Assembly (NCBI GenBank): GCA_050304755.1
Contig: JBNLED010000067.1
Span: forward strand, 1-59,909
DNA length: 59,909 nt
Origin: Polyangia bacterium
GTDB lineage: Bacteria > Myxococcota_A > Polyangia > JAAYKL01
Reading direction: 5' to 3'
A program made the translations under genes and the position numbers. Under the pieces are notes generated by a model. The model saw nothing but the letters and a program-made list of their open reading frames with translations. It was not told the origin of the DNA and made no database searches. This document shows, piece by piece, positions 14,101 through 49,656 of this stretch (the stretch's first letter is position 1; the number at the start of each line of letters is the position of its first letter).

Positions 14101-14406
14101 TGTGTCGGCATCCGTATCGGCATCTGTGTCGGCATCCGTATCGGCATCCGTGTCGGCGTCCGTATCGGCATCCGTGTCGGCATCCGTATCGGCATCCGTG
14201 TCGGCATCCGTATCGGCATCCGTGTCGGCGTCCGTATCCGCATCCGTGTCGGCGTCCGTATCCGCGTCTGTGGATGTATCGTTTTCAGAACCCGCGTCGT
14301 TTTCCTCACTGTTGCGGACGTCACAGGCCGCGCCCAACAGGAGAAACAACACAGCAACGGGAATGACCCGCCAAGCTGGGTTAACGTTATTGGCTCTCAT
14401 TTTCAT
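11146..14406 (-). CDS. Large secreted or lipoprotein (1086 aa) with an N-terminal (DADT)n tract and four repeats of an unknown beta-rich domain plus a CHB_HEX_C-like domain.
   Basis: A GGAGG SD precedes the ATG at 14406. The signal peptide has LLGAAC. About 125 aa of perfect DTDA repeats follow. Four repeats of about 210 aa each start with a conserved C-x-DFE...YHVGDT...AGGSGQ(E/D)LW(V/L)SNIN...FGE(F/Y)GGN(V/I)NI...GCxGxG...FSIGGQEFV(V/I)DxICP block. Each then continues with (I/V)(H/Y)(Y/F)TTDGSxPT...YTG, which resembles the chitobiase / beta-hexosaminidase C-terminal domain. Confidence 0.7.
13890..14280. repeat. Coding microsatellite with 12-bp period (gacgccgacacg-type, reading as DTDA on the minus strand), about 390 bp.
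   Basis: The near-perfect period is directly visible in lines 13921-14280 as 'gtatccgcatccgtgtcggcatcc...'. It encodes the (DADT)n tract of the 1086-aa protein. Confidence 0.75.
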
Positions 14407-17384: not shown

Positions 17385-18542
17385 TCAGTCGGGTATCGGA
17401 AGACAAGCCGGGACGCAATCATCGCATTCCGGACAGGAGGACGTACCGCAGTCGTAGCACCTGTGACCGTTGTCGCATTCACCATCGGATTCGCATCCCG
17501 GTTCTCCCCAGGGGCGGCAGGTGACGGTATTGACGCAGCTCCAGCACCCGTCCCGCACCGCGGTGATCTCGAACGCCGGATCGCAGTCGGGCATGGGGCT
17601 TTGGCAGTCCAGGGCGGTTCCGTCATCACAGCGGGTGTTCCTGTCGGTGATGGTGATGGTCAGATCGCCGGAGCGCGGGACCGTGAACGCCGTGGAATAG
17701 CGCGCGCGTGTTCCGGCCGCGACCATCATCCCGTAGATGCCCGTGGTCTCCGGCGGATTGCACGGGATCTCCAGGGCGCACTGAACCTCATTGTAGACAT
17801 CGACGAAGGCGCGGTACGCTCCTTCGAGGGGATGGTCATCGTAATAACAGGGGCAGCCGTCCTCGCAGTGATCGGAATTCAGCTTGTAGAGATCGCCGGA
17901 CCACTCCACCTCGTAACGCTCCCCTGGGGCGATGGCGATGGTGAAGGGATAGTATTCGCACATGACGCAGCAAACCTGTGTCACAGACTCATCGCACCGG
18001 TCCATGCAGTAGGGGGGCTGCAATTCGACCTCGCCCCACTCACCGTCGTTGTACTCTCCGACCAGCGGAGCGATGCCGTCGATGTACTTCATGTTCGGCG
18101 TATCGTTGACGATGATGACGATCACCGGCGATTGGTCCACCGGTGGGGCCGTGTCCGTATCCCTATCCGAATCCGCGTCAGAATCCGCATCTGAATCCGC
18201 ATCCGTGTCCCCGTCGGTGTCCCCATCCGTATCGGTGTCCGTGTCCGTATCGGTATCAACATCCGTGTCGGTGTCCGCATCAGTATCCGCGTCGGTGTCC
18301 GCGTCTGTATCCGCGTCGGTGTCCGCGTCGGTGTCCGCGTCGGTGTCCGCGTCAGTATCCGCGTCGGTGTCCGCGTCAGTATCCGCGTCGGTGTCCGCGT
18401 CGGTGTCCGCATCCGTATCCCCGTCGGTATCTCCGTCGGCACCGCCGGTGTCGGTGTCCCCGGGCGGATCCGAAGTGTTTGATGTCCAACATCCCGCAAT
18501 AACGAGACCGATCAATAACGACCCTTTCACGAGCATGTGCAT
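17385..18542 (-). CDS. Lipoprotein with a (DTDA)n acidic tract and a C-terminal Cys-rich domain; function unknown.
   Basis: The signal and lipobox are LVIAGC. About 95 aa of DGDTD / DADTD repeats are encoded by the 12-bp-period DNA repeat at about 18160-18460. The C-terminal ~230 aa contain more than 20 Cys, including CxxC pairs. Confidence 0.6.
18160..18460. repeat. Coding 12-bp-period microsatellite ((DxDT)n on the minus strand).
   Basis: Visible as 'gtccgcgtcggtgtccgcgtcagtatccgc...' iterations in the sequence. Confidence 0.7.
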
Positions 18543-20373: not shown

Positions 20374-20598
20374 CTTCCCGGTTCCATTGCCCGGCGGAGC
20401 CTGTGTTTTTCGCCGTGGAGGCCGTTTTTTTTCTTGATACCCGCTCTTTAAAATGTAAATACAACGGTTCATTGGAGGCGGCGGTAACGGTTTCCGGTGA
20501 GTCATATACAGAAGTCACAACGACTTGATACAATTGATGAACCCGCTGCCTCGAGTTAACGACACCACCACTGGAAACGAGCTTTTGTAGGAGGAGAG

Positions 20599-21147
20599 AT
20601 GGTCGAGCTTCGATTTCACGGCCGTGGAGGTCAGGGGTCCGTTACATCGGCGGAGCTGTTGGCCCTGGCGGCCATCGCTCAAGGTAAGTACGCCCAGTCA
20701 TTTCCGAAATTCGGTCCGGAACGCCGCGGGGCGCCTGTGATCGCATACGCTCGGATCAGTGACAAACAAATTCGCGATCGAACGGAGGTTCAGAATCCCG
20801 ACGTGGTGATTGTCCTGGATCCCTCCCTGCTCAGCATCGTCGATACATCCAAGGGGATGCCGGAAGACGGAATTCAAATCGTCAACACCACCCACTCGGC
20901 GGAGCACCTCCGGAAGGAGTTCGGGCTCAAGGGAAAGCTCGTCACCCTCAACGCCAACAAGATCGCGTCGGAGGAGATCGGCCGGGTCATCACCAACACC
21001 ACGATGCTCGGGGCGGCCATCCGCGCCACCGGGCTGGTGGATCCGGAGGCTATCGTCGAGCAGCTCAAGGTCCGCTTCGGGCGTATCGCCGAGGGAAACA
21101 TCAAGGCATTCAAGCGCGCGCATAGTGAATGCGTATGTGAGGAATAG
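20599..21147 (+). CDS. porG: Pyruvate:ferredoxin oxidoreductase gamma subunit.
   Basis: A GGAGGAG SD is present. The N-terminus FHGRGGQGSVTSAELLALAAIAQGKYAQSFPKFGPERRGAPV is the characteristic PorG start. It is followed by delta, alpha and beta subunits in the canonical order. Confidence 0.85.
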   Translation: MVELRFHGRGGQGSVTSAELLALAAIAQGKYAQSFPKFGPERRGAPVIAYARISDKQIRDRTEVQNPDVVIVLDPSLLSIVDTSKGMPEDGIQIVNTTHSAEHLRKEFGLKGKLVTLNANKIASEEIGRVITNTTMLGAAIRATGLVDPEAIVEQLKVRFGRIAEGNIKAFKRAHSECVCEE

Positions 21148-25699: not shown

Positions 25700-26104
25700 T
25701 CAGCGAACCAGCCCCAGGGTGCGCATGATGGTGGGGAGAAGCCAGCCGTAACCGAGCCCCCAGAGCAGGTTGAGGGTGACGGACTCGGCCGCCCCCCCCT
25801 TGACGACCTGCGTGCGGACGATGACCGCGCCGATGCTGAAGAGCGCGGTGAGGCCGACGGCGGTCCAGAACAGGATCCGGTCGGCGCTCGCCCACCACCC
25901 GGTGGCGAGATAGAACCCCGTCGTCACCACCACGCCGAACAGCAACGCCGCCATGGTGAATGCGAAGGAGAAGAGCCGCCGGTTCGGGACAGGCCCGGCG
26001 GCGCCGTCCTCCCCGACCGCGAGCTGATCGTAGCGGAGCCATACAATCAGAAAGGTCATGCCCGTGACCCCCAGGACGATGAGCATCGGAAATACCAGTT
26101 TCAT
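25700..26104 (-). CDS. Small integral membrane protein (134 aa, about 4 TM) translationally coupled to the upstream TetR gene.
   Basis: Only the C-terminal part of the 348-aa track ORF is credible: MKLVFPMLIVLGVTGMTFLIVWL.... Its ATG at 26104-26102 overlaps the TetR TGA at 26103-26101 (ATGA). The rest of the track ORF overlaps tetR in another frame. Confidence 0.5.
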   Translation of the reverse strand: MKLVFPMLIVLGVTGMTFLIVWLRYDQLAVGEDGAAGPVPNRRLFSFAFTMAALLFGVVVTTGFYLATGWWASADRILFWTAVGLTALFSIGAVIVRTQVVKGGAAESVTLNLLWGLGYGWLLPTIMRTLGLVR

Positions 26105-26673
26105 GGTTGTTCTCCTTTTGAAACGGGGATGGATTTCCCCGGATGTTTCATTCTGTGGAGGCGAAAGAACTCGTGGAAGAGCGCGCTCAGTACCTCCATT
26201 GAAAACGGCGGGTGCACGGCCAGGCTCCCGATGATGATGCAGTAGAACGTCCGGGCCGCCGTCTCCGCTCGGGGGCCGCTCCGCAGTCGGGAGAAGACCT
26301 CGGTGAGAAAGGCGATCCGCAGCGCGTCGAGTCGCTCCATATGCTCGCGGGCGACGGGGTTCGAGACCGCCCACGCGCGGATGGCGATCTCCGGCAGGGG
26401 GCTCCGCTTCTCGAACTCGCCGAGCAGCCCGAGGAGCACCTTGACGGGGGTGTCGCTCCTCTCGATGGCGTGAATGATCGCCGTGGAATCCGCCTCCCAC
26501 GCCTCGAGCAGCTTCACCTTGAAGTGTTGGATATTCTTGAAGTGGTGGTAGAACGAGCCCTTGGTCACCCCGAGGACCTCTGTCATCCGATCGATGGTGA
26601 TGGCCGAGACCCCCTCGGTGCCGAGAATCTCCAGTCCGGTCGCGATCCATTTTTCCTGAGTCTTGGGGGACAT
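26101..26673 (-). CDS. TetR/AcrR-family transcriptional regulator.
   Basis: The N-terminal helix-turn-helix is GLEILGTEGVSAITIDRMTEVLGVTKGSFYHHFKN. Length is 190 aa. Confidence 0.85.
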   Translation of the reverse strand: MSPKTQEKWIATGLEILGTEGVSAITIDRMTEVLGVTKGSFYHHFKNIQHFKVKLLEAWEADSTAIIHAIERSDTPVKVLLGLLGEFEKRSPLPEIAIRAWAVSNPVAREHMERLDALRIAFLTEVFSRLRSGPRAETAARTFYCIIIGSLAVHPPFSMEVLSALFHEFFRLHRMKHPGKSIPVSKGEQP

Positions 26674-29527: not shown

Positions 29528-30217
29528 TTACTGGCCTTCTCCGCCGGCCAGCTCCGCCTTCAGCGCCTCCAGCTCTGCGTCCGCGTCCGTCATGTCGAGC
29601 TTCTCGAACGCCTTCTGGAGCTCCACATCCTCGGTGTCTGCCATGTCGTCATAGGCCTTGGCGAGGGCCTCCTCCCGCGCCACGGTGTCCTCGAACCGCT
29701 GCAGGGACTGGAAGGCGTTGTCCCCCTCGGAGACCCCGGCGAGGGCCTTGGCCACCTTCTTCTGGGCGTTGGCGGCGTTCTTCCGGGCGATGAGGGTGGC
29801 GGAGGTGCGCCTGGCCTCGGCGATCTTGTTGCGCAGCATGTCCACCTGGGATTTCAGCTTGGCCCGGACCGCGTCCGCGTCCGCCACCCCCTTCTCCATG
29901 GACTGGGCCAGGCGATCGCACTCCCCCTTCTTGGCCAGCGCCTTCTTGGCCAGCGCTTCGTTTCCGGCCTCGAGGGCCTTCACCGCCTTCTGTTTCCAGT
30001 CCGCGGCGGCGTCCTTGTTCTTCTCGTACTCGGCCACCAGGCGGTTGTGGTTGCTCATCGCCTCGGCGGAGGCCTTGATCACATTGTTCAGCTCGGTCTC
30101 CATGTCCCGGATGGTCTGCTTCAGTGTCGTCTCAAAGGTTGCGTCTTCCAAAACATCCATCCCCTGGTGGGCCTTGCCCTTGAAAACCCGTGACAAACGG
30201 TTGAAAAGTCCTGACAT
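29528..30217 (-). CDS. pspA: PspA/IM30/Vipp1-family membrane-stress protein (phage shock protein A).
   Basis: The N-terminal amphipathic helix MSGLFNRLSRVFKGKA is followed by a long coiled coil with the typical PspA heptads, ending (D/E)...ELEALKAEL. Confidence 0.85.
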   Translation of the reverse strand: MSGLFNRLSRVFKGKAHQGMDVLEDATFETTLKQTIRDMETELNNVIKASAEAMSNHNRLVAEYEKNKDAAADWKQKAVKALEAGNEALAKKALAKKGECDRLAQSMEKGVADADAVRAKLKSQVDMLRNKIAEARRTSATLIARKNAANAQKKVAKALAGVSEGDNAFQSLQRFEDTVAREEALAKAYDDMADTEDVELQKAFEKLDMTDADAELEALKAELAGGEGQ

Positions 30218-30266: not shown

Positions 30267-30686
30267 CTACTTCTCCAGCAGGTCCTTTGCCATTACGGTG
30301 TCCACCAGCAGGAAGTTCAGGCACGAGAGGATGTCGTCCCGATCATCATCCCCCATCTCCTGGAGCTTACAGAAGTTGTTCAGCGTGATGGCGACCTTGT
30401 CCTCCCCGAGGGGATACAGCTTGAACGCCGAGGTGGAGATGCCGTTATCCGACATCAACATGGCCTGCATCTGATCGGGGGTGATCTCGGATGACTTCAC
30501 CACCTTGCAGGACACGGTGTTGAAGAGCACGTCGTTTTCGAGCACCGATGTGATCAGGACGCTGCTCTCGAGATCGCGAATCTGAAGCGATGAGTCGTCT
30601 GATCCGACGATCTCGTAACCCGCTTCCACCAGCAGGGCGCGGACCTCGTCGATGCCGATTTCCACGCTCTCTTGTCGATTACTCAT
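30267..30686 (-). CDS. YbjN-like (putative sensory transduction / T3SS-chaperone fold) protein, first gene of the pspA operon (weak family call).
   Basis: It is 139 aa and acidic. The alpha/beta pattern resembles E. coli YbjN (DVLF...V..KV; AFKLY....KVAITLNNFC). Confidence 0.4.
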   Translation of the reverse strand: MSNRQESVEIGIDEVRALLVEAGYEIVGSDDSSLQIRDLESSVLITSVLENDVLFNTVSCKVVKSSEITPDQMQAMLMSDNGISTSAFKLYPLGEDKVAITLNNFCKLQEMGDDDRDDILSCLNFLLVDTVMAKDLLEK

Positions 30687-30800
30687 TTTCCTTCTCCTTT
30701 TTTACGTTTCACCTATTGTCGCATTCACTCGCTGAACGAAGCGAACCGAAGTCCCTGTCTGATGAGTAGCTCCCATAGAGAAGATACAAGCACCAGGGTT

Positions 30801-30817
30801 GGCAACCTCTGCGCCCA
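30801..30817 (-). promoter_or_regulatory. Candidate sigma-54 (-24/-12) promoter for the YbjN-like / pspA operon.
   Basis: The minus strand reads tGGGcgcagaggTTGCc, with GG and GC spaced 10 nt apart, about 115-130 bp upstream of the YbjN-like ATG. The plus strand also reads TGGCA-N..-GCGC, so orientation is ambiguous. GG-N10-GC occurs by chance in high-GC DNA. Confidence 0.2.
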
Positions 30818-30938
30818 CGTCCTGCTCTCAAGATAAAGCTATTCGGAATAACAGGCAATTTCTAAAACCCCGAGATTTGAACTTCGGATCGGAGTGGTGC
30901 GACCAGGTTTCCCCCCTCTCTCAATTCGGCAATCCCCC

Positions 30939-31005
30939 GGTTGCGATCGGGTCTCCCCCCAAGTTGCGATCGGGTCTCCCCTCGGTTGCAATCAGGTCTC
31001 CCCCC
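30939..31005. repeat. Tandem direct repeat A: three copies of about 22 bp (GGTTGCGATCGGGTCTCCCCCC).
   Basis: The copies are at 30939-30960, 30963-30983 and 30984-31005, with one to three substitutions each. They lie in the divergent intergenic region between the pspA operon and nfeD-floT. Confidence 0.85.
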
Positions 31006-31024
31006 TGGGAAATGTGCGCAAAAC

Positions 31025-31113
31025 GCAGGGGGACACCTCGTGAAAAGCAGGGGGACACCTCGTAAAAAGCAGGGGGACACCTCGTAAAACGCAGGGGAAC
31101 ACCTCGTGAAAAC
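31025..31113. repeat. Tandem direct repeat B: four copies of 22 bp (GCAGGGGGACACCTCGTGAAAA).
   Basis: The copies are at 31025-31046, 31047-31068, 31069-31090 and 31091-31113. The core GGGGGACACC is nearly the reverse complement of the repeat-A core GGTCTCCCCCC. Confidence 0.85.
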
Positions 31114-31379
31114 GCGATTTTGCCGCCAAAACACTCCCGCACGATTGATGAAGCGCACCTTCGTCCAAACGTCCATCTTCTCCATTCCATCCAATCTCCG
31201 AGCCTCCCCGGCAGAGTTCTATTATGAAAAAATTTGAACTTATCAAACCTCACTTTCCGGGTTACAGTTATCACTGCATTCACCTCGCTGAGCTTGAAAA
31301 ACTCGTGCGTTACCTCTGGCCCTTTGAAGGGGGCCGCCCGGCGCATCGATTGCGGTCCCTGGGAAGGAAGGAGACTTTG

Positions 31380-32156
31380 ATGGAACAGCTCGGATTACTC
31401 GCGGCGGCCATGTTCGCCCCCATTAATCTGGGATACACGATTCTGTTGATTGTCATCCTCATCTACTGGGGCCTCGTCATCATCGGGGCGTTGGGCATCG
31501 ACTCCTTCGACTTCGATCTGGACAGCGATGTGGACGCCAACCTGGATGTGGACGCCAACCTGGATGTGGACGCGGATATGGATGTGCACGCGGACGCGGA
31601 TGTGCACGCGGATGCGGATATGGATGCGGACGCGGACGCTGACGCCCACGCCGACGGAGACGGCGACGCGGATGCCCACCACGGCGGCTTCCTCCACGGG
31701 CTGCTCACTTTCTTCAACCTGGGGGAGGTGCCACTGATGGTGTTCGCCAGCGTCCTCGTGCTGTGTATGTGGGCCATCTCCATGACGGTGAACGTGGTGC
31801 TGAACAACGAGTCTTTTATACTGGGGGTGCCCCTGTTCGCGGGGAATCTGTTCGTGAGCTCCATCGTCGCGAAGTTCCTGACGACCCCCATCAAGCACGT
31901 CTTCCGGGCCCTCGACAAGGCCACGGATATCGAGCCGGGACACGACGTCCTCGGCCAGACCTGTGTCATTTCCACCAGCGAGGCGACCGATAGCTTCGGT
32001 CAGGCGACCATCGAGACGGACGGCGCGCCGCTTATCCTCAACGTGGTGACCTACCGGGGAGAGACTTTAAAAAAAGGCCAGGAGGCCGTGGTGATCGACT
32101 ATATCAAGGACAGACGGGTGTACACCGTAAAAAGCAGATGGGACGAGGAGGAGTAA
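31380..32156 (+). CDS. NfeD / YqiJ-like membrane protein (flotillin partner) with an internal Asp-rich tract and a C-terminal OB-fold.
   Basis: A GGAAGGAAGGAG SD lies 6 nt before the ATG at 31380; the track ORF starts earlier at 31224. Two TM blocks flank a D-x-D-x acidic insert ([22 protein letters not shown]...). The C-terminal soluble beta domain ([36 protein letters not shown]) is typical of NfeD short homologues. The stop abuts the flotillin start. Confidence 0.6.
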
Positions 32157-32157
32157 G

Positions 32158-34374
32158 ATGTCGGGAATAGTACCTGGAACAATCGTGTTGAGCCCCTTCG
32201 AGGGGCTGGATCCCACAATCATATTCGGAGCGGTGGGGATCATCGGCGCCATCATCCTGTTTGGCCTGCTGTCGATGCTCCTCAAGTGTTACAAAAAGGT
32301 GAACCAGGGCACGGCCCTCATCCGGAACGGCATGGGGGGCACCAAGGTGAGCTTCTCCGGTATGATGGTATTTCCGGTGATCCACAAAATGGAGATGATG
32401 GAGATCTCCGTCAAGCGGGTGGAGATCGACCGGATGGGGCAGAACGGGCTCATCTGCAAAGACAACATGCGGGCGGACGTCAAGGTGGCGTTCTTCGTCC
32501 AGGTCAACAAGACCCCCCACGATGCGCTCAAGGTGGCCCAGGCCCTCGGGTGCGTCCGCGCCTCCGATCCCCAGTCGCTGATAGAGTTCTTCGACGCCAA
32601 GTTCTCCGAGGCCCTCAAGACCGTGGGCAAGCAGTTTGACTTCGTCGAGCTCTACAACAACCGGCAGCGGTTCAAAGAGGAGATCCTCAAGGTCATCGGC
32701 ACGGACCTCAACGGGTACGTCCTGGACGACGCGGCCATCGACTACCTCGAGCAGACCAGCATCAAATACCTCGACCCCAACAACATCCTGGACGCGGACG
32801 GTATCAAGAAGATCACTGATCTCACGGCCAAGCAGGCGGTGCTCGCCAACGACATCGAGCGGGAGAAACAGAAGATCATCAAGAAGCAGGACGTGGAGGC
32901 CAAGGAGACCATCCTCCAGCTCGAGAAGCAGCAGGCCGAGGCCGAGCAGACCCAGGCCAGGGAGATCGCCGAGATCACGGCCCGCCAGACCGCCGAGGCG
33001 ATGAAGGTGCAGCAGGAGGAGCGGCTCAAGGCGGAGAAGGCCCGCATCATGTCGGACGAGGAGATCGCCATCGCCGAGGAGAACCGGCAGCGGCAGATCA
33101 TCGTGGCGGCCAAGAACAAGGAGCGCACCACCGCGGTGGAGACCGAGCGGGTCAAGAAGGACCAGGAGCTGGAGGCCACCGAGCGGGAGCGTACCGTCAC
33201 CCTGGCGCAGATCGAAAAAGAGAAGGCCGTGGAGGTAGAGAAGCGGAACATCCAGGAGGTGATTCGCGAGCGGGTGAACGTGGAGCGGTCCGTGGTGGAG
33301 CAGGAGGAGAAGATCAAGGACACCAAGGAGTTCGCCACCGCGGAGCGATCGAAGAAGGTGGCCATCACATTGGCGGAGGAGCAGGCCGAGCAGGAGAAGA
33401 TCAAGGTCGTCAAGATCGCGGAGGCCTCCAAGGAGGCGGCCGACCTCAGGGCCAAGGAGCAGATCATCATCGCCGAGGGGCAGCGGGCCGCGTCCGAGAA
33501 AGAGGCGGACGCCCGGAAGATCATCGCGGACGCCACGGCCCAGGAGGAGGCGGTCAAGGGCTTCGGCGAGGCCCGGGCGCTGGAGGCCAAGGCCGAGGCG
33601 CAGGAGAAGTACGGCACCGCGGAGGCGGCGGTCATCGAGCGGAAGGCGACGGCCGAGGCCAAGGGGCTCGAGGCCCAAGCCGTGGCGATAGAGAAGCAGG
33701 GGATGGCCGAGGCCAAGGTTATCGAGAGCAAGGGGATCGCGGTGGCCAAGGGGGAGGAGGCCCACGCGGTGGCTGTGGAGAAGCTCGGGACCGCCGAGGC
33801 CAATGTCTCGCAGCGGAAGTTCCACGCCGAGGCCAAGGGCATCGAGGAGAAGGCCGGGGCCATGAAGCTCTTCGACGACGTGGGTAAGGACCACGAGGAG
33901 TTCAAGCTCAGCCTGGAGAAATCCAAGGAGGTCGAGCTCGCCCAGATCAGCATCCAGACCGAGATCGCCAAGGCCCAGGCGGGCATCGTGGGCGAGGCCC
34001 TCAAGCACGCGAAGATCGACATCGTGGGTGGCGAGACGACCTTCTTCGACAAGATCGTCAGCTCCGTCACCGCCGGCAAGTCGGTGGATCGCATCGTGGA
34101 CCACAGCGGGCTGCTCACGGATGTCCGGCTCTCCCTGCTCGGCGACAAGACCCAGTCCCTCGTCCGCAAGCTGAAGGACGCGGTGTCCAAGTCCGGCATC
34201 GACTCCGGGGACCTCAAGAACCTCTCCGTAGCCGCCCTGCTCTCCAAGATGATCATGAAGGCGGACGACGACCGGACCATCTCACTCCTCGGCAAGCTCT
34301 CGGACACCGCCAAGGAGCTCGGCCTCAATCACGAGAACGCCGCGTCGGTCCTCGGGGACACCAAGAAGAAGTAA
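32158..34374 (+). CDS. Flotillin-like SPFH/Band-7 protein (YqiK/FloT-type) with a very long Glu/Ala/Lys-rich coiled-coil region.
   Basis: An N-terminal TM hairpin is followed by the SPFH core NQGTALIRNGMGGTKVSFSGMMVFPVIHKMEMMEISVKRVEI...DVKVAFFVQV. About 400 aa of EA-repeat coiled coil follow. Total length is 738 aa. Confidence 0.85.
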   Translation: MSGIVPGTIVLSPFEGLDPTIIFGAVGIIGAIILFGLLSMLLKCYKKVNQGTALIRNGMGGTKVSFSGMMVFPVIHKMEMMEISVKRVEIDRMGQNGLICKDNMRADVKVAFFVQVNKTPHDALKVAQALGCVRASDPQSLIEFFDAKFSEALKTVGKQFDFVELYNNRQRFKEEILKVIGTDLNGYVLDDAAIDYLEQTSIKYLDPNNILDADGIKKITDLTAKQAVLANDIEREKQKIIKKQDVEAKETILQLEKQQAEAEQTQAREIAEITARQTAEAMKVQQEERLKAEKARIMSDEEIAIAEENRQRQIIVAAKNKERTTAVETERVKKDQELEATERERTVTLAQIEKEKAVEVEKRNIQEVIRERVNVERSVVEQEEKIKDTKEFATAERSKKVAITLAEEQAEQEKIKVVKIAEASKEAADLRAKEQIIIAEGQRAASEKEADARKIIADATAQEEAVKGFGEARALEAKAEAQEKYGTAEAAVIERKATAEAKGLEAQAVAIEKQGMAEAKVIESKGIAVAKGEEAHAVAVEKLGTAEANVSQRKFHAEAKGIEEKAGAMKLFDDVGKDHEEFKLSLEKSKEVELAQISIQTEIAKAQAGIVGEALKHAKIDIVGGETTFFDKIVSSVTAGKSVDRIVDHSGLLTDVRLSLLGDKTQSLVRKLKDAVSKSGIDSGDLKNLSVAALLSKMIMKADDDRTISLLGKLSDTAKELGLNHENAASVLGDTKKK

Positions 34375-34401: not shown

Positions 34402-37400
34402 ATGGCTGAAGCAGAAGCGAAAAGAGAAGAAACTAAGGAGCAGCTCGCCGGCGGCACCTACGAGATCATCCGGAACCGCCTGAACAACCACGCCGAGGCC
34501 CTCCGGGGACGGCTCGACGCGCTCAACCAGGCGCGGAAAGAGGTGTTCGGATCCATCGAGTCCGCGCTCATCGCCCAGGAACGGGTCACCACCGACAACA
34601 ACTGCGTCCCGCGGGATATGGTGTGCATCGGGGAGCAGTTCCTCTTCGGCTACAATGTCCACCTGGGGCTCAAGAGCGAGTTCAAGGTAGGGGACGTGTT
34701 CTCGGTCTACAGCTACGCGGATCACGCCTTCACCAAGACCGAGCTCACCCTCATCAAGGACAAGCAGTTCCAGGAGGACTTCCGGAATCTCTACCATTAC
34801 TACAAGGCGACCTCATTCTCACAGTTCGCCCGCATCGGCACCAGCCTGTTCATGGTCTTTAGGGTGGGCAAGGACACGGATGCTATCAAGACCTTCAAGT
34901 GGGTGGTGAACGAGGACCACACCCTCACCTATGTGGACAACCGCAGCGACCACGAGTACAGGTTCCCGCCCCAGCACGAGTTCGAGTGGCGGCGGGCGAC
35001 CCGCGATCAGCACCGGGGGGGGGAGTTTCCCCACGTCTCCATCGACGACCGCATTTTTGTGGAGACCACCGGCGGGGACCTGACCGTCAAGGTGGAGGAC
35101 AATACGGAAACGGGCGCCGGCATCTACGCGGAGCCGGTGGACGATCCCGACCAGACCCTGGACGACGCGGAGTTCCACTACGCGGTCCTGGGAAACCTGA
35201 TCCTGCTGAAGATCAAGCCCTACCGGGAGGAGGCGTACCGCTACATCGTCTATAACGAGAAGGTTCAGGAGGCGCGGCGCATCGACACCATCAAGGACGC
35301 CTGCGTGCTCCTCCCCGAGGACCACGGCATCATCTTCTCCAACGGCTACTACCTCCAGAACGGCGAGTTCAAGCTCTTCGAGAGCGAGCTCTCGGACATG
35401 CACTTCCGGAAACGGATCTCGTCGCCCAACGGCGAGGATACCCTCTTCGTGTTCTTCAACCGGGAGAGCGGCACCTACATGCTGCTCGCCTACAATATGA
35501 TCGAGCAGACCGTCGCCACCCCCACCGTCTGCAACGGCTACTCCACCTTCGAGAACGGCGAGATGATCTACTTCAAGTCGGACGGGGAGCCCAAGAAGCA
35601 CCACCCCATCCAGATCTGGCAGACGCCCTTCGTGAGCGCCAACTACGAGGCGCCCCAGAAGAGCGATTCGTTCCTCTACAAGCTGGGCAACCGCGACATC
35701 GTGCGGGCCATGGCCGCCTGCCGCGCCGTGCTCAACCTGGTGGGCAAGGAGGAGAGCTACGCCAACGTCTATGTGGACATCTCCCGGGAGGCCAACGACA
35801 TCCTGGATGCCTACTTCTGGCTCGACAAAGAGGAGGCCGAGAACCTGAGGGAGCCCCTCGAGGGGATCCGCCGGGCCGCCGGGAACGCCATCGAGGAGTT
35901 CGAGAAGGTGGTCCGGCTCCGGAAGGACACCGCCGAGCAGGTGGGGGCCGCCTCCGCGGAGATCAAGGAGATCCTGTCCGGCATCGCCACCCGGCGGTTC
36001 GCCGATATCGGCGACTTCGTGGAGCTGCTGGCCCGCCTCCGGACGGTGCGGGGGCGGACCATCGGCCTCAAGGAACTGCGCTACGTGGACCTGGAGGAGG
36101 TGGCGGCGCTGGAGAAGGTGGTCGAGGAGAACACAGCGAGCCTGGCCAATCGGTGCGTGGCGTTCCTGCTCTCCGATGAGGCGCTCGCGCCCTACGAGCA
36201 GAAGGTGGTGAAACTAAAGGCCGCCATCGAGCCGGTCAAGACGGTGAAGGACGCCAAGTCCCTCGAGTCGGAGATCGTCACCTCCGGGGGTGAGCTGGAG
36301 ATGCTCATCGAGATCGTGAGCAACCTCAAGATTGAGGACGCCCGGGATCGCACCAAGATCATCGACGGGATTTCCGAGATCTACGCCACCCTGAATCAGG
36401 CCCGCTCCACCCTGAGCAACCGCATCAAGTTCCTGGCCTCCGCCGAGGGGGAGGCGGAGTTCGGCTCCCAGATCAAGCTGCTGGACCAGGCGGTGATCAA
36501 CTACCTCGACGTGTGCGACACGCCCGAGAAGTGCGACGAGTACCTCACCAAGATAACGGTTCAGGTGGGGGAGCTGGAGGGGCGCTTCTCCGATTTCGAC
36601 CAGTTTATCATAGAGCTCACCGAGAAGCGGGACGAGATCTACAACGCCTTCGAGTCCCGAAAGCTCTCATTGGTAGAGGCGCGGAACAAGAAGACCGACG
36701 CCTATCTCCGGAGCGCCGAGCGGATCCTGTCGGGAATCAATACCCGGGTACAGCAGCTCACCACCGTCGAGGAGATTAACGGCTACTTCGCCTCCGACCT
36801 CATGGTGGACAAGGTCCGGGATATTATCGAGCAGCTCCGGGAGCTGGACGACATCGTCAAGGCGGACGATATCCAGTCGCGGCTCAAGACCCTGATGCAG
36901 GATACCCTCCGTCAGCTTCGGGATCGCAACGAGCTGTTCGTGGCGGGGGAGAACGTCATCAAGTTCGGCGAGCACCACTTCTCGGTGAACACCCAGGACC
37001 TGGCCCTCACCATCGTGGACCGGGAGGACGGGCTCTACCTGCACCTCACCGGCACCAACTTCTTCGAGCGGATCGACGACCCGCGGATCGAGGAGACGAG
37101 GCCGGTGTGGGACCAGCAGCTGGTCTCGGAGAACGAAGAGGTCTACCGCGGCGAGGTCCTGGCCTACGCCATGCTCAAGGCGCTCCGGGGGGATCCCAAG
37201 GCGTTCGAGGACGCGGCATCCCTCAATGAGGAGTCGCTGGTCCCTGAGGTTCGGGAGTTCATGGCGCCCCTCTACGCCGAGGGGTATGTCAAGGGGGTTC
37301 ACGATGTGGACGCGGCCAAGTACCTGGCGGTGCTCCTCCGAATGGAGGCCACCATCGGGCTGCTCCGGTTCCACCCGCGGGCCAGGGCCCTGGCCATGCT

Positions 37401-39675
37401 CTACTGGCACCAGCTGGGACAAACGGGGAAAGAGCGGCGTGCCGCTTTGGGCTCCAAGCTTCGAGGCGTCGGGGAGATCAACAAGATTTTTCAAAGTCGC
37501 AGGCAGCGGGCGCAGTACCTCCCGGAGCTTCAGACCGAGCTGGAGAATTTCACTCGGGAAGCAGGGCTCTTCGATATCATTTATTGTGCACCGGCGGCCG
37601 AGTATCTCTTCGATGTCCTCACCAACGAGGAGCGGTTCGCCATCAGCGGGGAGGCCCACCGGATCTACCGCGGCCTCATGGATCACCTGGACCGGCGGGG
37701 CGCAACGAAAGCGCTGCAAGAGCCCCTCGACCAGCTGGGGGACCGGTTTGCCGACGCGCTCGTACTGCTCAAGGATTGGGTATCTGCCTTCCTCGAGAGC
37801 CGTCATGAGGAGGCATCCGATGACTACATCGAAGAGGTGGCGGTGCTGTTTATCAACGGCCTCTTCGACAGCCAACTCGTGGTCAGCGCCGAGGTGGAGC
37901 AGGAGATAGTCGGGCTGGTGGGGGATCACCCGGTGCTCGTCGAGGGAAAGGTGACCCTCAACTACAACCGCTTCACCATGAAGCTGACCCGGTTCGAGAT
38001 GGAGACGGTGCCGCTCTTCGAGGCGCACCAGCGGCTGAAAAAAGAGATCGTCGAGGAGGCCACCGATGCGCTCCGGCTGGAGGAGTTCCGCCCGCGGATT
38101 CTCAGCTCGTTCGTGCGCAACCGGCTCATCGACAAGGTGTACCTGCCCCTGGTGGGGGATAACCTGGCCAAACAGATCGGCGTGGTGGGCGCGGAGACCC
38201 GCACCGATCGGATGGGGCTTTTGCTGCTCATCTCCCCGCCGGGCTATGGCAAGACCACCCTGATGGAGTATATCGCCAACCGCCTTGGGGTCATCTTCAT
38301 GAAGATCAACGGCCCCGCCATCGGTCACAAAGTGACCTCTCTCGATCCCGGGGAGGCGCCCAACGCGGCGGCCCGGGAGGAGATGAAGAAGCTCAGCCTC
38401 TCCTTCGAGATGGGCGACAACGTGATGATTTACCTGGACGACATTCAGCACTGCAACCCGGAGTTCCTTCAGAAGTTCATCTCCCTCTGCGACGCCCAGC
38501 GAAAGATCGAGGGGGTGTACAAGGGCCGGACCCGGACCTACGACTTCCGCGGGCGGCGGGTCTGCGTGGTGATGGCGGGCAACCCCTACTCCGAGAGCGG
38601 CGAGGCGTTCAAGATCCCCGACATGCTGGCCAACCGGGCGGACACCTACAACCTGGGGGACATCATCGGCGAGAGCGACGAGGCCTTCAAGCTCAGCTAC
38701 CTGGAGAACGCCCTCACCTCGAGTCCGGTCCTCGGGAAGATGGCCGCCAAGAACTTCAAAGACGTGTACGGCATCATCCGGGCCGCGGCGTCGGGGAGCC
38801 GGGAGGGGATAGACTTCGAGGGGAACTACTCGGGGCCGGAAATCGAGGAGTACATCTCGGTGATGAAGAAGCTCCTCAAGGTCCGCGATGTGATCCTGAA
38901 GGTCAACCAGCAGTACATCTACTCGGCGGCCCAGGCGGACGAGTACCGCACCGAGCCCCCCTTCAAGCTCCAGGGATCGTACCGGAACATGAACCGCATC
39001 ACCGAGAAGGTGCTGCCCATCATGAACGACGAGGAGCTCGTCAACCTGGTGAACGACCACTACGCGAGCGAGTCCCAGACCCTGACCACCGCCTCCGAGG
39101 CCAACCTGCTCAAGTTCAAGGCGCTCACCGACGCCCTCACCGGGCCCGAGGCCGACCGCTGGAACGAGATTAGGAGCACCTTCAACCGGAACCAGCTCCT
39201 CGGCGACGACAGCGATCCCATGCGCCAGGTCATCGCGGTGCTCAGCACGTTCCGGGAGGGGCTCGGCGCCATTCAGGGGACCCTGGAGAGCGGCATCGAG
39301 CAGATGGCGAACAGCCAGCCCATTGTTATTGAGACCTCCCGGGCGGTCTCCCTCGATACTTCCGAGGAGGAGTCGACGGGAATGTTCCAAGCACCGGAGA
39401 GGACCATCCCCGCGGCGGAGAGGACCGTTCCGGTATCAAAGAGGACGGTTCCCGCGGAGGAGACCGTCCGCGTATCGAACACCGATCCCCCACCGGAGGA
39501 CAAGCCCCCGCAGGCACAGAAGAGCGCTTCGCCGTCATCAAAGAAAGCGCTCCGGTCATCGGTGAAGTCGCGCGCCCCGTCCGACCAGAAGACGAGCTCC
39601 CCGGCTCCCAAGAAGGGGGCCTCGACGTCCGCGGCGGCACGGCGGATCATCAATATTCATGACGAGGAGGAGTAA
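34402..39675 (+). CDS. Giant protein (1757 aa) with one MoxR/AAA_5-like ATPase module near the C-terminus; function unknown.
   Basis: A continuous ORF with good codon usage. A GGAAGG SD precedes the ATG, which is 27 nt after the flotillin stop. Walker A LLLISPPGYGKTTL is at about 38230. Walker B MIYLDDIQH is at about 38430, and a MoxR-type sensor region VCVVMAGNPY...IPDMLANRADTY follows. The N-terminal ~450 aa look beta-rich, the middle ~800 aa helical, and the C-terminal tail is Pro/Ser/Lys-rich with three ERT(I/V)P repeats. Confidence 0.7.
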   Translation: MAEAEAKREETKEQLAGGTYEIIRNRLNNHAEALRGRLDALNQARKEVFGSIESALIAQERVTTDNNCVPRDMVCIGEQFLFGYNVHLGLKSEFKVGDVFSVYSYADHAFTKTELTLIKDKQFQEDFRNLYHYYKATSFSQFARIGTSLFMVFRVGKDTDAIKTFKWVVNEDHTLTYVDNRSDHEYRFPPQHEFEWRRATRDQHRGGEFPHVSIDDRIFVETTGGDLTVKVEDNTETGAGIYAEPVDDPDQTLDDAEFHYAVLGNLILLKIKPYREEAYRYIVYNEKVQEARRIDTIKDACVLLPEDHGIIFSNGYYLQNGEFKLFESELSDMHFRKRISSPNGEDTLFVFFNRESGTYMLLAYNMIEQTVATPTVCNGYSTFENGEMIYFKSDGEPKKHHPIQIWQTPFVSANYEAPQKSDSFLYKLGNRDIVRAMAACRAVLNLVGKEESYANVYVDISREANDILDAYFWLDKEEAENLREPLEGIRRAAGNAIEEFEKVVRLRKDTAEQVGAASAEIKEILSGIATRRFADIGDFVELLARLRTVRGRTIGLKELRYVDLEEVAALEKVVEENTASLANRCVAFLLSDEALAPYEQKVVKLKAAIEPVKTVKDAKSLESEIVTSGGELEMLIEIVSNLKIEDARDRTKIIDGISEIYATLNQARSTLSNRIKFLASAEGEAEFGSQIKLLDQAVINYLDVCDTPEKCDEYLTKITVQVGELEGRFSDFDQFIIELTEKRDEIYNAFESRKLSLVEARNKKTDAYLRSAERILSGINTRVQQLTTVEEINGYFASDLMVDKVRDIIEQLRELDDIVKADDIQSRLKTLMQDTLRQLRDRNELFVAGENVIKFGEHHFSVNTQDLALTIVDREDGLYLHLTGTNFFERIDDPRIEETRPVWDQQLVSENEEVYRGEVLAYAMLKALRGDPKAFEDAASLNEESLVPEVREFMAPLYAEGYVKGVHDVDAAKYLAVLLRMEATIGLLRFHPRARALAMLYWHQLGQTGKERRAALGSKLRGVGEINKIFQSRRQRAQYLPELQTELENFTREAGLFDIIYCAPAAEYLFDVLTNEERFAISGEAHRIYRGLMDHLDRRGATKALQEPLDQLGDRFADALVLLKDWVSAFLESRHEEASDDYIEEVAVLFINGLFDSQLVVSAEVEQEIVGLVGDHPVLVEGKVTLNYNRFTMKLTRFEMETVPLFEAHQRLKKEIVEEATDALRLEEFRPRILSSFVRNRLIDKVYLPLVGDNLAKQIGVVGAETRTDRMGLLLLISPPGYGKTTLMEYIANRLGVIFMKINGPAIGHKVTSLDPGEAPNAAAREEMKKLSLSFEMGDNVMIYLDDIQHCNPEFLQKFISLCDAQRKIEGVYKGRTRTYDFRGRRVCVVMAGNPYSESGEAFKIPDMLANRADTYNLGDIIGESDEAFKLSYLENALTSSPVLGKMAAKNFKDVYGIIRAAASGSREGIDFEGNYSGPEIEEYISVMKKLLKVRDVILKVNQQYIYSAAQADEYRTEPPFKLQGSYRNMNRITEKVLPIMNDEELVNLVNDHYASESQTLTTASEANLLKFKALTDALTGPEADRWNEIRSTFNRNQLLGDDSDPMRQVIAVLSTFREGLGAIQGTLESGIEQMANSQPIVIETSRAVSLDTSEEESTGMFQAPERTIPAAERTVPVSKRTVPAEETVRVSNTDPPPEDKPPQAQKSASPSSKKALRSSVKSRAPSDQKTSSPAPKKGASTSAAARRIINIHDEEE

Positions 39676-47121: not shown

Positions 47122-49656
47122 ATGAGACAACCTTATTACTTCGTTTGGATTTTTATTTCCGGGATGGTGGCATCCACTGTCGGATGTTGGAGCCAGAAGC
47201 CGGAGAAATTTTCAGGGGACAGCGAGGCGATCGAGACAGAGGAGGAGACGGAACCGCGGGACGCAGAAGAGCGGGAGACCGATCCGCTCTCAGAATGCCT
47301 CCAATTGAAAGAGGTGATGACCTCGGAGGTTTCCCCCGCGGGGGTGCGCACCGTGTTTCAACTGCTCGATTGCGACGGTTCCCCCATCACCGATCTCCGC
47401 GATGACGAGCTCACGGTGCTCCTCGATGGGGAGGAGATCCGCGAGGAGGGGGATCGGGCCTCCGTGCTGACCCAGGAGGTGGAGTTCTCCAACTACGCCC
47501 TGCTGCTCCTCGACATGTCGGATTCAATCGTCAACACGGGCACTTTGGATTCGATGGTGGCGGCGGCCCGGGCCCTGGCCTTCGAGCTCATCGACCAAGA
47601 GGTGAAGATCGCCATCTACCGGTTTGCCGGCCCCAACTACTTCGCCGAGGTTCAGCCGTTTACCCTCGACGAGGCGGCCGTCGACGACGCCCTGGACGAG
47701 CTGGCGACGTCTGACGGGCTGGGGACCACGGATCTCTACGGCGCCATTCCGCGAGCTATCGACGCTTTGGAGGCCGAGGGGGCGAGCGAACGAGTCCTGA
47801 CCTCACGGACCCTAATCGTCTTCACCGACGGTACGGACGAGGCCATGACCGCCACCTTCGACAGCACGAACCAGGCGGTTCAACGCTCAAAGGCGCAGGT
47901 GTTCACCGTGGGGATGGGGGAGGCGGTCGACCGGAACGAGCTGTCCACCCTGGGCAAGAACGGCACCGCCTGGGCCGAAGACGCGGATGCCCTGAACGAC
48001 GCCTTCGAGGAGGTCTCCCGCCAGATCGTGGATCGGGCCAGGTCGCACTACCTGATCGGCGTCTGCAGTCCGCGGGCGCAGGGCATCCGGACCCTCACCA
48101 TCGCGGTCGAGCGGGAGGAGAAGCGGGGGGCGTTGGAGGTGACCTACAACGCCTACGGGTTCGATATCGTCAGCTGCGATGCCGAGACGGTGGCGTTCCC
48201 CTGCAGGGAGCGGGAGTGCGGCACCATCGACGGATTTTCATGCGGCGTCTGCGGCACCGGGGAGCTCTGCAATGAGGAATATACCTGTGAGCAGGTCTGC
48301 TCGGAGGCGTTCGAGTGCGGTTCGCGCAACGGCGTGGATTGCGGTGACTGCACGGACCGGGGGGCGGAGTATGCCTGCGGTGACGATCACCGCTGTGTGG
48401 TGCCGTGCGAGGAGGCGGAGTGCGGGGTGTTGCTGGGGGTGGACTGCGGCGACTGCAGTCACCTCGGCGAGACCTTCGGGTGTGACGAGCAGCATGCGTG
48501 CGTGGACGCCTGCGCCGACGCGGAGTGCGGGATCGTGGATGGGGTGGACTGCGGCGACTGCGGTCACCTCGGCGAGACCTTCGGGTGTGACGAGCGGCAT
48601 GCGTGTGTGGACGCGTGCGCCGACGCGGAGTGCGGGATCGTGGATGGGGTGGACTGCGGCGACTGCGGTCGCCTCGGCGAGACCTTCGGGTGTGACGAGC
48701 AGCATGCGTGTGTGGACGCGTGCGCCGACGCGGAGTGCGGGGTGGTGCTCGGGGTGGATTGCGGGGATTGCGGTCACCTCGGCGAGCGCTTCGGGTGTGA
48801 TGACGACTACCGCTGTGTGGATGCGTGCGGGGCCTCCGAATGCGGCACTCGCCTCGGGGTGGACTGCGGTCCCTGCGCCGACGGCTTCGAGTGCTCGCCG
48901 GACGATGTCTGCGTTCCGGTGTCGCTACCGGATATCTCCTGGGCATTCGTCCCCGGCGCGACAGTGACCCTTGGCTGCACCCTCGTCACCGATCCCGACT
49001 GTGACGTCGACGAGGTCGCCCACGACGTGCAGCTCTCGGACTTCTGGATCATGGCCTCCGAGGTCACCGTGGAGAATTACGACGCCTGCGTGGCGGCCGG
49101 GGCCTGCGACCCGCTGCTCATCGACACGGGCGATGAGTGCAATAGAAACGCGAACCGGCCCTCCCATCCCATCAACTGCATCGAGTGGGAAGGGTTGCGA
49201 CAGTTCTGCGACTTCATCGACAGCGAGATCCCCACCGAGGCCCAATGGGAGCGGGCCTATCGGGGAGATCACGACGGTAACCTCGAGCCCTACTGGATCT
49301 ATCCCTGGGGGAGCTCGCCGGCGCCGAGCTGCGATCGGGTGGTGATGAATGACGGCGGTCCGGGATGCGGCACCGCGGGAACCCTTCCCCGGGGGAGCCT
49401 GCCGGCGGGGCTCTTCGATCTGTACGACATGGCGGGCAACGTGGCGGAGTGGACGCGGGATTCCTACGCGGAGTCCTTTGCCGGCTGTGGTGATGGGCCT
49501 TGCGTGAATCCGGAGGGCCCGGAGCTCGGTGACGAGCGGGTCGTCCGGGGGGGATCGTTCAACGACATGTTCAGCTCCGCGTTTCGAACGGCAAAGCGGG
49601 ACAAGGCCGCGCCGGACAGCCGCTCGGCGGCCATCGGTGGGAGATGTGTAAAATAG
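47122..49656 (+). CDS. Secreted or lipoprotein combining a vWA-like domain, five tandem Cys-rich repeats of about 40 aa, and a C-terminal formylglycine-generating-enzyme (FGE/SUMF1, DUF323) domain.
   Basis: A GGGGAGG SD lies before the ATG at 47122. The signal peptide is MRQPYYFVWIFISGMVASTVGC. The vWA-like fold shows LLLLDMSDS...TLIVFTDGTDEA. Five repeats of ECGxxxGVDCGDCxxLGETFGCDEQHACVDACADA follow. The FGE signature is FWIMASEVTVENYDACV...HPINCIEWEGLRQFC...WTRDSY...RVVRGGSFNDMFSSAFRTAKRD. Confidence 0.7.
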   Translation: MRQPYYFVWIFISGMVASTVGCWSQKPEKFSGDSEAIETEEETEPRDAEERETDPLSECLQLKEVMTSEVSPAGVRTVFQLLDCDGSPITDLRDDELTVLLDGEEIREEGDRASVLTQEVEFSNYALLLLDMSDSIVNTGTLDSMVAAARALAFELIDQEVKIAIYRFAGPNYFAEVQPFTLDEAAVDDALDELATSDGLGTTDLYGAIPRAIDALEAEGASERVLTSRTLIVFTDGTDEAMTATFDSTNQAVQRSKAQVFTVGMGEAVDRNELSTLGKNGTAWAEDADALNDAFEEVSRQIVDRARSHYLIGVCSPRAQGIRTLTIAVEREEKRGALEVTYNAYGFDIVSCDAETVAFPCRERECGTIDGFSCGVCGTGELCNEEYTCEQVCSEAFECGSRNGVDCGDCTDRGAEYACGDDHRCVVPCEEAECGVLLGVDCGDCSHLGETFGCDEQHACVDACADAECGIVDGVDCGDCGHLGETFGCDERHACVDACADAECGIVDGVDCGDCGRLGETFGCDEQHACVDACADAECGVVLGVDCGDCGHLGERFGCDDDYRCVDACGASECGTRLGVDCGPCADGFECSPDDVCVPVSLPDISWAFVPGATVTLGCTLVTDPDCDVDEVAHDVQLSDFWIMASEVTVENYDACVAAGACDPLLIDTGDECNRNANRPSHPINCIEWEGLRQFCDFIDSEIPTEAQWERAYRGDHDGNLEPYWIYPWGSSPAPSCDRVVMNDGGPGCGTAGTLPRGSLPAGLFDLYDMAGNVAEWTRDSYAESFAGCGDGPCVNPEGPELGDERVVRGGSFNDMFSSAFRTAKRDKAAPDSRSAAIGGRCVK

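Follow-up and report, generated by a model that had tools for sequence, protein, structure and literature searches.

Two repeat arrays between divergent psp and flotillin operons

The 59,909-nt contig JBNLED010000067.1 from Polyangia bacterium (Myxococcota_A; assembly GCA_050304755.1), the whole of which is referred to here as the window, carries two adjacent arrays of 22-bp repeats, designated A and B, flanked by a yjfI-like/pspA operon that runs leftwards and a yqiJ (NfeD-like)/SPFH-flotillin operon that runs rightwards. The leftward operon begins on the minus strand with a yjfI-like (CesT/Tir-type) gene encoding 139 aa (30267–30686), followed by a PspA/IM30 family gene (29528–30217; PF04012, E = 1.8e-40) and by further minus-strand genes for a 145-aa open reading frame (ORF) and a thioredoxin. 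The rightward operon, on the plus strand, encodes a YqiJ/NfeD-like membrane protein of 258 aa with an Asp-rich repeat (31380–32156), an SPFH/band-7 (flotillin-like) protein of 738 aa (32158–34374) and a DUF3686/DUF7902/AAA+ ATPase of 1,757 aa assigned by Pfam (34402–39675). The full-length SPFH-like protein was missed by the Pfam scan, probably owing to its Ala/Glu/Lys-rich composition, but its N-terminal 260 aa alone gave an SPFH/Band_7 match (PF01145, E = 1.8e-10). We place the start of the rightward operon at 31380 and not at the upstream ATG at 31224, because the near-identical assembly GCA_050299055.1 has frameshifting indels between the two positions, its gene is called at 258 aa and the proteins of relatives are 252–258 aa long; the intergenic region spans 30687–31379. 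The gene context of the arrays is already known, since a neighbourhood of CesT/Tir(YjfI)-PspA plus YqiJ, band-7/flotillin and AAA+ proteins has been described (Ravi et al. 2024, PMC11237479) and the genes flanking the arrays are of the same class. That study is about proteins, and its passages on this neighbourhood contain nothing array-like.

Tandem Repeats Finder reported one period-22 array at 30934–31005 (3.2 copies, 84% matches) and a second at 31020–31112 (4.2 copies, 90% matches). A mismatch-tolerant pattern search placed three matches to the array A unit, GGTTGCGATCGGGTCTCCCCCC, at 30939, 30962 and 30984, and four to the array B unit, GCAGGGGGACACCTCGTGAAAA, at 31025, 31047, 31069 and 31091, each with 0–2 mismatches; A or B unit matches of such quality occurred in none of 100 shuffles. 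Array A (30939–31005, plus strand) comprises three well-kept 22-bp units, with an additional base at 30961 separating the first unit from the second, and next to it (30895–30938, plus strand) lie two decayed units in the same phase, TGGTGCGACCAGGTTTCCCCCC (30895–30916, 17/22 matches) and TCTCTCAATTCGGCAATCCCCC (30917–30938, 11/22 matches). The 19 bp between the arrays (31006–31024), read in phase, form a 10/22 relic of a B unit, and array B (31025–31112, plus strand) follows with four 22-bp units, each containing an A4–5 tract. With the decayed A units and the spacer relic counted, about 218 bp are made up of ten 22-bp units, and the pattern search found no further copy of either unit in the window. 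These head-to-tail, non-coding repeats fit the definition of minisatellites or variable-number tandem repeats (VNTRs; 10–100 bp). They do not code for protein: 22 is not divisible by three, and the only long ORF across them is frameshifted in GCA_050299055.1.

The A and B units share a core on opposite strands: GGTCTCCCCC in A and GGTGTCCCCC, the reverse complement of the B core, are identical at nine of ten positions, and the agreement is 13/22 over the whole unit and 4/12 outside the core. An equally good core block arose in 3.6% of composition-preserving shuffles of B (p about 0.04, all rotations and both orientations allowed), so that the reverse-complement relation of the two cores is marginally beyond chance. 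The shared core reads GGTSTCCCCC and is present in seven good copies facing two ways, with changes within the arrays falling mostly outside the cores; one exact core match only occurs elsewhere in the window, and the units have no palindromic character. A preliminary description of the locus had reported two adjacent 22-bp arrays of three and four copies, with nearly reverse-complementary cores presented seven times in two orientations, inside a divergent psp/flotillin control region. The arrays and their copy numbers are confirmed, the core relation is confirmed with the marginal significance just given, and the setting is as described except that the rightward gene starts at 31380 and not 31224. 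The same description rightly set aside a CRISPR (clustered regularly interspaced short palindromic repeats) array, which we also rejected: the units are contiguous and there are no spacers.

A lineage-specific insertion separates predicted back-to-back promoters

For comparison of the intergenic region we used relatives with a 71–81%-identical 139-aa yjfI-like protein, including loci L004, L005 and L006; their intergenic regions measure 179–260 bp, and all lack the arrays. A sigma-70-type promoter is predicted for the yjfI-like/pspA operon at 30830–30858 on the minus strand, with -35 TTGCCT (30858–30853), a 17-nt spacer and -10 TATCTT (30835–30830) preceded by TTTTAGAAA. This pair is kept in L004, L005 and L006, and the motif common to the window and these three relatives is TTTTTGAAATTGC...TATCTTGAGA, with -35 TTGCnn, a 17-nt spacer and -10 TAtnTT. 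On the other side, a sigma-70-type promoter is predicted for the yqiJ-like/SPFH/AAA+ operon at 31240–31268 on the plus strand, with -35 TTATCA, a 17-nt spacer and -10 TACAGT, preceded by TGAAC; the layout common to the window, L005 and L006 is TGAACTTAnCA-N17-TAnTCT. We infer that these conserved hexamers are the promoters of both operons. A consensus sigma-70 and terminator scan of 30500–31500 returned no match, under criteria stricter than the conserved hexamers. In L005 (about 340–440) and L006 (about 1400–1510) the two -35 hexamers stand back to back, 24 nt apart, and in the window they are 381 nt apart.

The window contains a direct repeat of 10 bp, ATTTGAACTT, which resembles a target-site duplication, with its left copy at 30875–30884 and its right copy at 31232–31241 on the plus strand, the latter overlapping the -35 hexamer of the rightward promoter by 2 nt. 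Between the copies lie 347 bp (30885–31231) that hold both arrays and 119 bp of unique sequence, the distance from the arrays to the boundaries being 10 bp on one side and 119 bp on the other. The flanks were compared by an anchored identity test without gaps; a MAFFT alignment of the intergenic regions had laid the left half of the relatives wrongly over the decayed A units and was discarded. On the yqiJ side of a shared AAGTTCA, L005 and L006 match the flank of the copy at 31232 at 20–23 of 45 positions versus 11–13 of 45 for the flank of the copy at 30875; on the psp side they match the flank of the 30875 copy at 34–38 of 75 positions versus 22 of 75 for the other copy. Once 357 bp are deleted, the window aligns colinearly and without gaps to L005 and L006, and its -35 hexamers come to lie exactly 24 nt apart, as theirs do. 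It follows from the anchored test and the restored 24-nt spacing that the arrays are part of a 347-bp lineage-specific insertion with a target-duplication-like flank; a single insertion in this lineage is a more parsimonious history than the same precise deletion having occurred several times among the relatives. The back-to-back divergent promoter module itself (window 30830–30870 and 31232–31268) is conserved with relatives of ~70% protein identity.

The near-identical assemblies add an observation on the promoter region. Compared with GCA_050299055.1 (L001; 99.7% identical), all eight mismatches and two one-base indels fall at 31154 and within 31250–31297, and the resulting ~50-bp difference patch spans the spacer of the yqiJ-side promoter and the first 30 nt past its -10, the remaining ~3.4 kb being identical. 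Recombination, polymorphism in the population or an artefact of assembly could each account for this patch; a third assembly, L172, has the window's version.

Occurrence and stability of the arrays

A tandem-repeat scan of 49 related loci, comprising close relatives, 38 GTDB genomes and three more distant Myxococcota-like contigs, revealed no comparable array of 15–30-bp period upstream of the yjfI-like gene, and only two weak repeats of 10–12 bp with fewer than three copies were seen there. At one of the loci examined, from a Bryobacterales metagenome-assembled genome (L044), a 19-bp repeat in three copies, GATCTTTAAAATTCAGAAC, lies directly 3' of the yjfI-like gene and before the next gene (2463–2520). 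A protein-guided search of GTDB returned only relatives of at most 56% identity, mostly Acidobacteriota, and a search through the YqiJ-like protein reached 69% identity at best. The arrays are identical in three near-identical assemblies (99.7–99.8%), namely that of the window, GCA_050299055.1 and GCA_050303475.1, which differ overall by only 0.2–0.3%.

Exact scans found no B unit in GTDB species genomes and no B dimer in JGI metagenomes, and the only match to the A or B units in IMG/VR was a lone 17-mer matching the B core, consistent with chance; the genome and metagenome collections searched are also without the window's own locus. The whole insert had no blastn match among PLSDB plasmids or INPHARED phages, and low-stringency blastn against the retrieved loci and the window outside the insert yielded only chance matches of 11–15 nt. 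The possibility that the 22-mers belong to a dispersed family of repetitive extragenic palindromic (REP)-like elements or miniature inverted-repeat transposable elements (MITEs), raised in the preliminary description as a refutation, found no support, there being no other copy in the window or the collections searched. A REP or bacterial interspersed mosaic element was rejected: the units are not palindromic, no copy lies in the other intergenic regions of the window and there is no significant fold. In the comparison with related genomes proposed at the same time, the array-less relatives exposed the history of the insertion, and no copy-number variation was seen among the three assemblies, which are nearly identical overall.

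Position, folding and curvature

Measured from the predicted transcription starts, the arrays occupy about -70 to -290 on the psp side and about -160 to -380 on the yqiJ side; they lie upstream of both promoters and outside both predicted transcripts. It was suggested earlier that they might form a structured RNA leader for nfeD-floT, and minimum-energy folds do pair A cores with B cores, as expected if C-runs of A paired with G-runs of B in a yqiJ-SPFH leader, an antisense RNA or a small RNA. However, both conserved promoters face away from the arrays, the consensus scan of 30500–31500 described above found no promoter-like or terminator-like site, the fold z-scores lie within the range of shuffled sequences (-0.83 for plus-strand RNA, -1.34 for minus-strand RNA and -0.31 for DNA) and Rfam gave no match at E up to 1. 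The leader proposal is thus not supported, and we regard a structured RNA of any of these kinds as barely tenable.

The A4–5 tract in each B unit sets the tracts in phase every ~two helical turns through array B and its right flank. Under three wedge models, the 110-bp segments starting at 31031–31051 are the most curved of the whole window, with predicted bends of 95–114 degrees against a median of 16–22 degrees. The predicted curvature of array A is unremarkable.

Interpretation of the arrays

We hold, with about even confidence, that the arrays are iteron-like minisatellites that expanded locally on a lineage-specific insertion and have at most an architectural effect. Non-coding DNA of 347 bp would have inserted, in a single uncultured lineage of Myxococcota and with a 10-bp target duplication (ATTTGAACTT), into the 24-nt gap between back-to-back sigma-70-type promoters, one of which would drive the yjfI-like/pspA genes leftwards and the other the yqiJ-like/SPFH-flotillin/AAA+ genes rightwards. 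Inside the insert, 22-bp units would then have multiplied head to tail, until there were four B units and five A units, of which the outer two have since decayed; the units may have arisen by slippage or unequal exchange. The insert would move the promoters 357 bp apart and put bent, periodic DNA upstream of both, and any effect that it has would be architectural; the function of the arrays is uncertain and probably modest. If the locus is only a minisatellite-bearing insertion it is ordinary, and it warns against reading enterobacterial psp regulation through sigma-54 and PspF into distant phyla. It would also be a natural case of 357 bp of periodic, predicted-curved DNA set exactly between the back-to-back promoters of a membrane-stress locus, a layout that suits testing whether an insertion uncouples or retunes divergent promoters.

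Several observations weigh against this account. The equal 22-bp period of A and B and the 9/10 core in opposite orientation (p about 0.04), whereas outside the core the units are randomised (4/12), hint at constraint on a recognised motif and not at pure neutral slippage. The clean 10-bp flanking duplication is a signature of transposition, yet neither a terminal inverted repeat nor a second copy was found, the search for further copies in this genome covering the 59.9-kb window. Taken alone, the 10-bp repeat is statistically weak, as we estimate that about 0.4 such pairs would be expected in 900 bp; it carries weight because the comparative alignment backs it. Both promoters are predictions, and so is the curvature; any repeat of ~21-bp period accumulates bend.

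The hint of a recognised motif leads to a different account, in which the arrays would serve, much like iterons, operators or centromeres, as platforms where a sequence-specific protein recognising GGTSTCCCCC binds cooperatively at several sites. That protein would occupy the units head to tail at a spacing of 22 bp (two helical turns) in two opposed blocks, loop or coat the region and regulate both promoters. The equal period, the core common in opposite orientation within otherwise unrelated units, the concentration of changes outside the cores and the position 70–380 bp upstream of two promoters all fit such binding, as do metagenomic 22-bp arrays, among them a family upstream of a large unannotated gene on a contig with MobC and relaxase genes. 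However, no candidate binder lies adjacent, the nearest regulator being a TetR-family gene 4 kb away, the statistics for the shared core are marginal and the core has a single exact match elsewhere in the window. Moreover, there is no conserved regulon logic, because no relative of the locus has the arrays. We therefore treat a dedicated binding protein as a minority possibility, held tentatively; if it is true, the arrays would represent a new multi-site operator or mobile-element end, and to that extent the suggestion of iterons for some regulator, made in the preliminary description, is possible.

The flanking duplication, for its part, raises the question of whether the 347-bp insert is a miniature non-autonomous mobile element or its decayed ends, with the opposed arrays serving as transposase, integrase-arm or Rep sites. 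Sites of 22 bp occur at the ends of Tn7 and Mu, attP contains arm-type sites, and the size range of MITEs and attP sites includes ~347 bp. The insertion is clean and flanked by a 10-bp duplication, its deletion restores the 24-nt spacing, it bears two inverted blocks of 22-bp sites in 3(+2) and four copies, and its size falls in the MITE/attP range. Yet no terminal inverted repeat was apparent by eye, the best candidate being the 6-bp pair TCGGAG/CTCCGA at 4 and about 30 nt from the ends, and an inverted-repeat search of the region gave no arms at the insertion boundaries, the ends having otherwise been compared by eye without a dedicated search. The arrays are placed asymmetrically with respect to the boundaries (10 bp versus 119 bp), the duplication is 10 bp and not 5 bp as in Tn7, Mu and Tn402, and there are no TGT...ACA termini, the insert beginning with CGG and ending with AAA. 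Nor was a second copy found in the window, GTDB, JGI, IMG/VR, PLSDB or the phage collections, or a transposase or integrase domain in the scanned ORFs around the locus. We consider such an element with its own recombination or replication sites unlikely; a broader version, in which a miniature mobile element, intact or surviving as a domesticated remnant, docks at its opposed 22-bp blocks either a transposase- or Rep-like protein of the donor or a host regulator recruited later, is doubtful but deserves some weight. If the broader version holds, the landing of the element between back-to-back promoters would have rewired a membrane-stress locus of PspA and flotillin modules in this Myxococcota lineage, a modest case from nature in which an element bearing repeats, with unusual ends that lack terminal inverted repeats, rewires promoters.

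The leading idea of the preliminary description was that the arrays form an upstream enhancer, or upstream activating sequence (UAS), of a sigma-54 promoter of psp, bound by a PspF-like bacterial enhancer-binding protein (bEBP). Proteins of this class are numerous in Myxococcota, the arrays lie 123–311 bp upstream of a GG-N10-GC match at 30802–30816 on the minus strand (GGGCGCAGAGGTTGC, GGGCGC-N5-TTGC, with two mismatches to TGGCAC-N5-TTGC), and a relative with a 57%-identical yjfI-like protein (L170) carries, 1.4 kb upstream of the gene for that protein, a GAF/sigma-54-activator gene. The candidate site is nevertheless of chance quality, with 31 such -24/-12 matches found versus 42 expected from shuffles; it is absent from the orthologous leaders of L004, L005 and L006, and it sits 13 nt downstream of the conserved -10 of the sigma-70-type pair TTGCCT-N17-TATCTT. 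L170 itself has no sigma-54-type site upstream of its yjfI-like/pspA pair, the arrays are missing at every related locus, and the recommended check for a bEBP/PspF-like gene gave no such Pfam match in the 27 predicted ORFs that the scan covered, about two-thirds of the total, away from both window ends. PspF-dependent control is, in addition, described only in Enterobacteriaceae (PMC9239133). The present evidence does not support the arrays as a sigma-54 enhancer, which we judge very improbable, or as a conserved part of psp/flotillin control; the account that we prefer remains that of a minisatellite-bearing insertion. As a separate observation on L170, its activator gene (1–1629) encodes a GAF-GAF-sigma-54-activator protein, and an AP-endonuclease gene separates it from the yjfI-like/pspA pair.

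Wider genomic context and other repeats

The wider window contains chromosomal genes, including ruvAB, trmFO/gidA and genes for pyruvate:ferredoxin oxidoreductase (PFOR) and a MiaB-like enzyme, and the named relatives of its RuvB belong to Myxococcota, Polyangia or 'Deltaproteobacteria'. The TetR-family gene (26101–26673, minus strand) is the nearest gene for a DNA-binding protein; it is ~4 kb from the arrays, past the MiaB-like and rhodanese genes, and nothing points to a connection between it and the arrays.

Coding repeats are frequent in the same stretch. Long Asp-rich (Asp-X)n repeats with 6/12/18/24/36-bp periodicity occur at 31527–31672, 13902–14272, 18154–18439 and 49850–50204, in several genes including that for the YqiJ-like protein beside the arrays, and cause spurious MSCRAMM/Sdr matches. 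An 87-bp coding repeat in three copies (71% matches) lies at 33583–33847 in the Ala/Glu/Lys-rich region of the SPFH/flotillin-like gene. A 105-bp coding tandem repeat (~4 copies, Cys/Asp-rich) lies at 48382–48829 (in L172 at 20527–20911) in a gene for a protein with VWA and FGE-sulfatase domains, and its copy number varies: the protein measures 861 aa in the window versus 809 aa in L172, with a shift of ~102–105 bp in alignment offset. L172 and the window are otherwise 99.8% identical, and the non-coding A and B arrays show no such copy-number variation.

Comparison with known repeat systems

Repeats of 22 bp are familiar from plasmid iterons, of which the R6K gamma origin has seven and pPS10 four. 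The window arrays resemble iterons in being tandem, direct 22-bp repeats (within the 17–22-bp range of iterons), non-coding and upstream of a promoter, with a conserved core and a variable remainder. They differ in lacking an adjacent rep gene, a DnaA box and an AT-rich unwinding region, and in their chromosomal housekeeping context; no DnaA-box-like 9-mer with at most one mismatch was found in 30600–31500, where the only AT-rich stretches are the two promoters.

A generic metagenome scan for three GGGGASAC cores spaced 21–23 bp apart yielded more than 120 contigs, among them likely plasmid iterons and coding 21-bp repeats; apart from the imposed 8-nt core, none resembled A or B. Among the metagenomic arrays we noted a recurrent family with 4–8 tandem 22-bp units, each consisting of TTTGGGGAGACG and ~10 lineage-specific bases, which end in a truncated unit, after which come TAGAC repeats and an (AAC)n/(GTT)n hairpin. 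Its members are L076 (700–810), L049, L050, L051, L052, L104, L119, L131, L146, L163 and L168. The array of L076 has a toxin-antitoxin-like pair on one side and, on the other, a gene of 513 aa without a Pfam match, a putative novel Rep; MobC/NikA and relaxase genes stand further downstream. The TTTGGGGAGACG arrays are likely to be iterons of an undescribed family of mobilisable plasmids; as such they illustrate the form of a functional 22-bp array, with companions that the window arrays lack.

The likeness to transposon ends is of another kind. Tn7 carries three 22-bp TnsB sites at its left end and four at its right end, and its target duplication is 5 bp, as is that of Mu. The insert shares with these ends the 22-bp units, the three and four good copies, the inverted blocks and an insertion flanked by a target duplication. 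It differs in that the blocks abut in mid-insert and not at the ends, the duplication is 10 bp, TGT/ACA termini are absent, A and B share a 10-bp core only, and neither a transposase gene nor a second copy was found here.

Mycobacterial interspersed repetitive units (MIRUs) are intergenic minisatellites or VNTRs, and the arrays are like them in being tandem, non-coding, intergenic units of tens of bp with decayed outer copies. They are unlike them in showing no copy-number difference among the three near-identical assemblies and no detected dispersed family, and adjacent arrays with an inverted core are atypical of such repeats.

The UAS of Escherichia coli pspA, bound by PspF (PMC9239133), is comparable in that its repeated elements, too, lie in a divergent control region, 100–300 bp ahead of a psp operon. 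The window differs from it in that a credible or conserved -24/-12 element is missing, a sigma-70-type promoter is kept, the arrays are lineage-specific and no bEBP match was obtained in the scanned ORFs.

Finally, phased A-tracts can make upstream DNA intrinsically curved. In array B the tracts recur every two turns, unlike the one-turn phasing of such DNA, and curvature is predicted only; the array nonetheless resembles curved upstream DNA in its A4–5 tracts every 22 bp and in the highest predicted curvature of the window.

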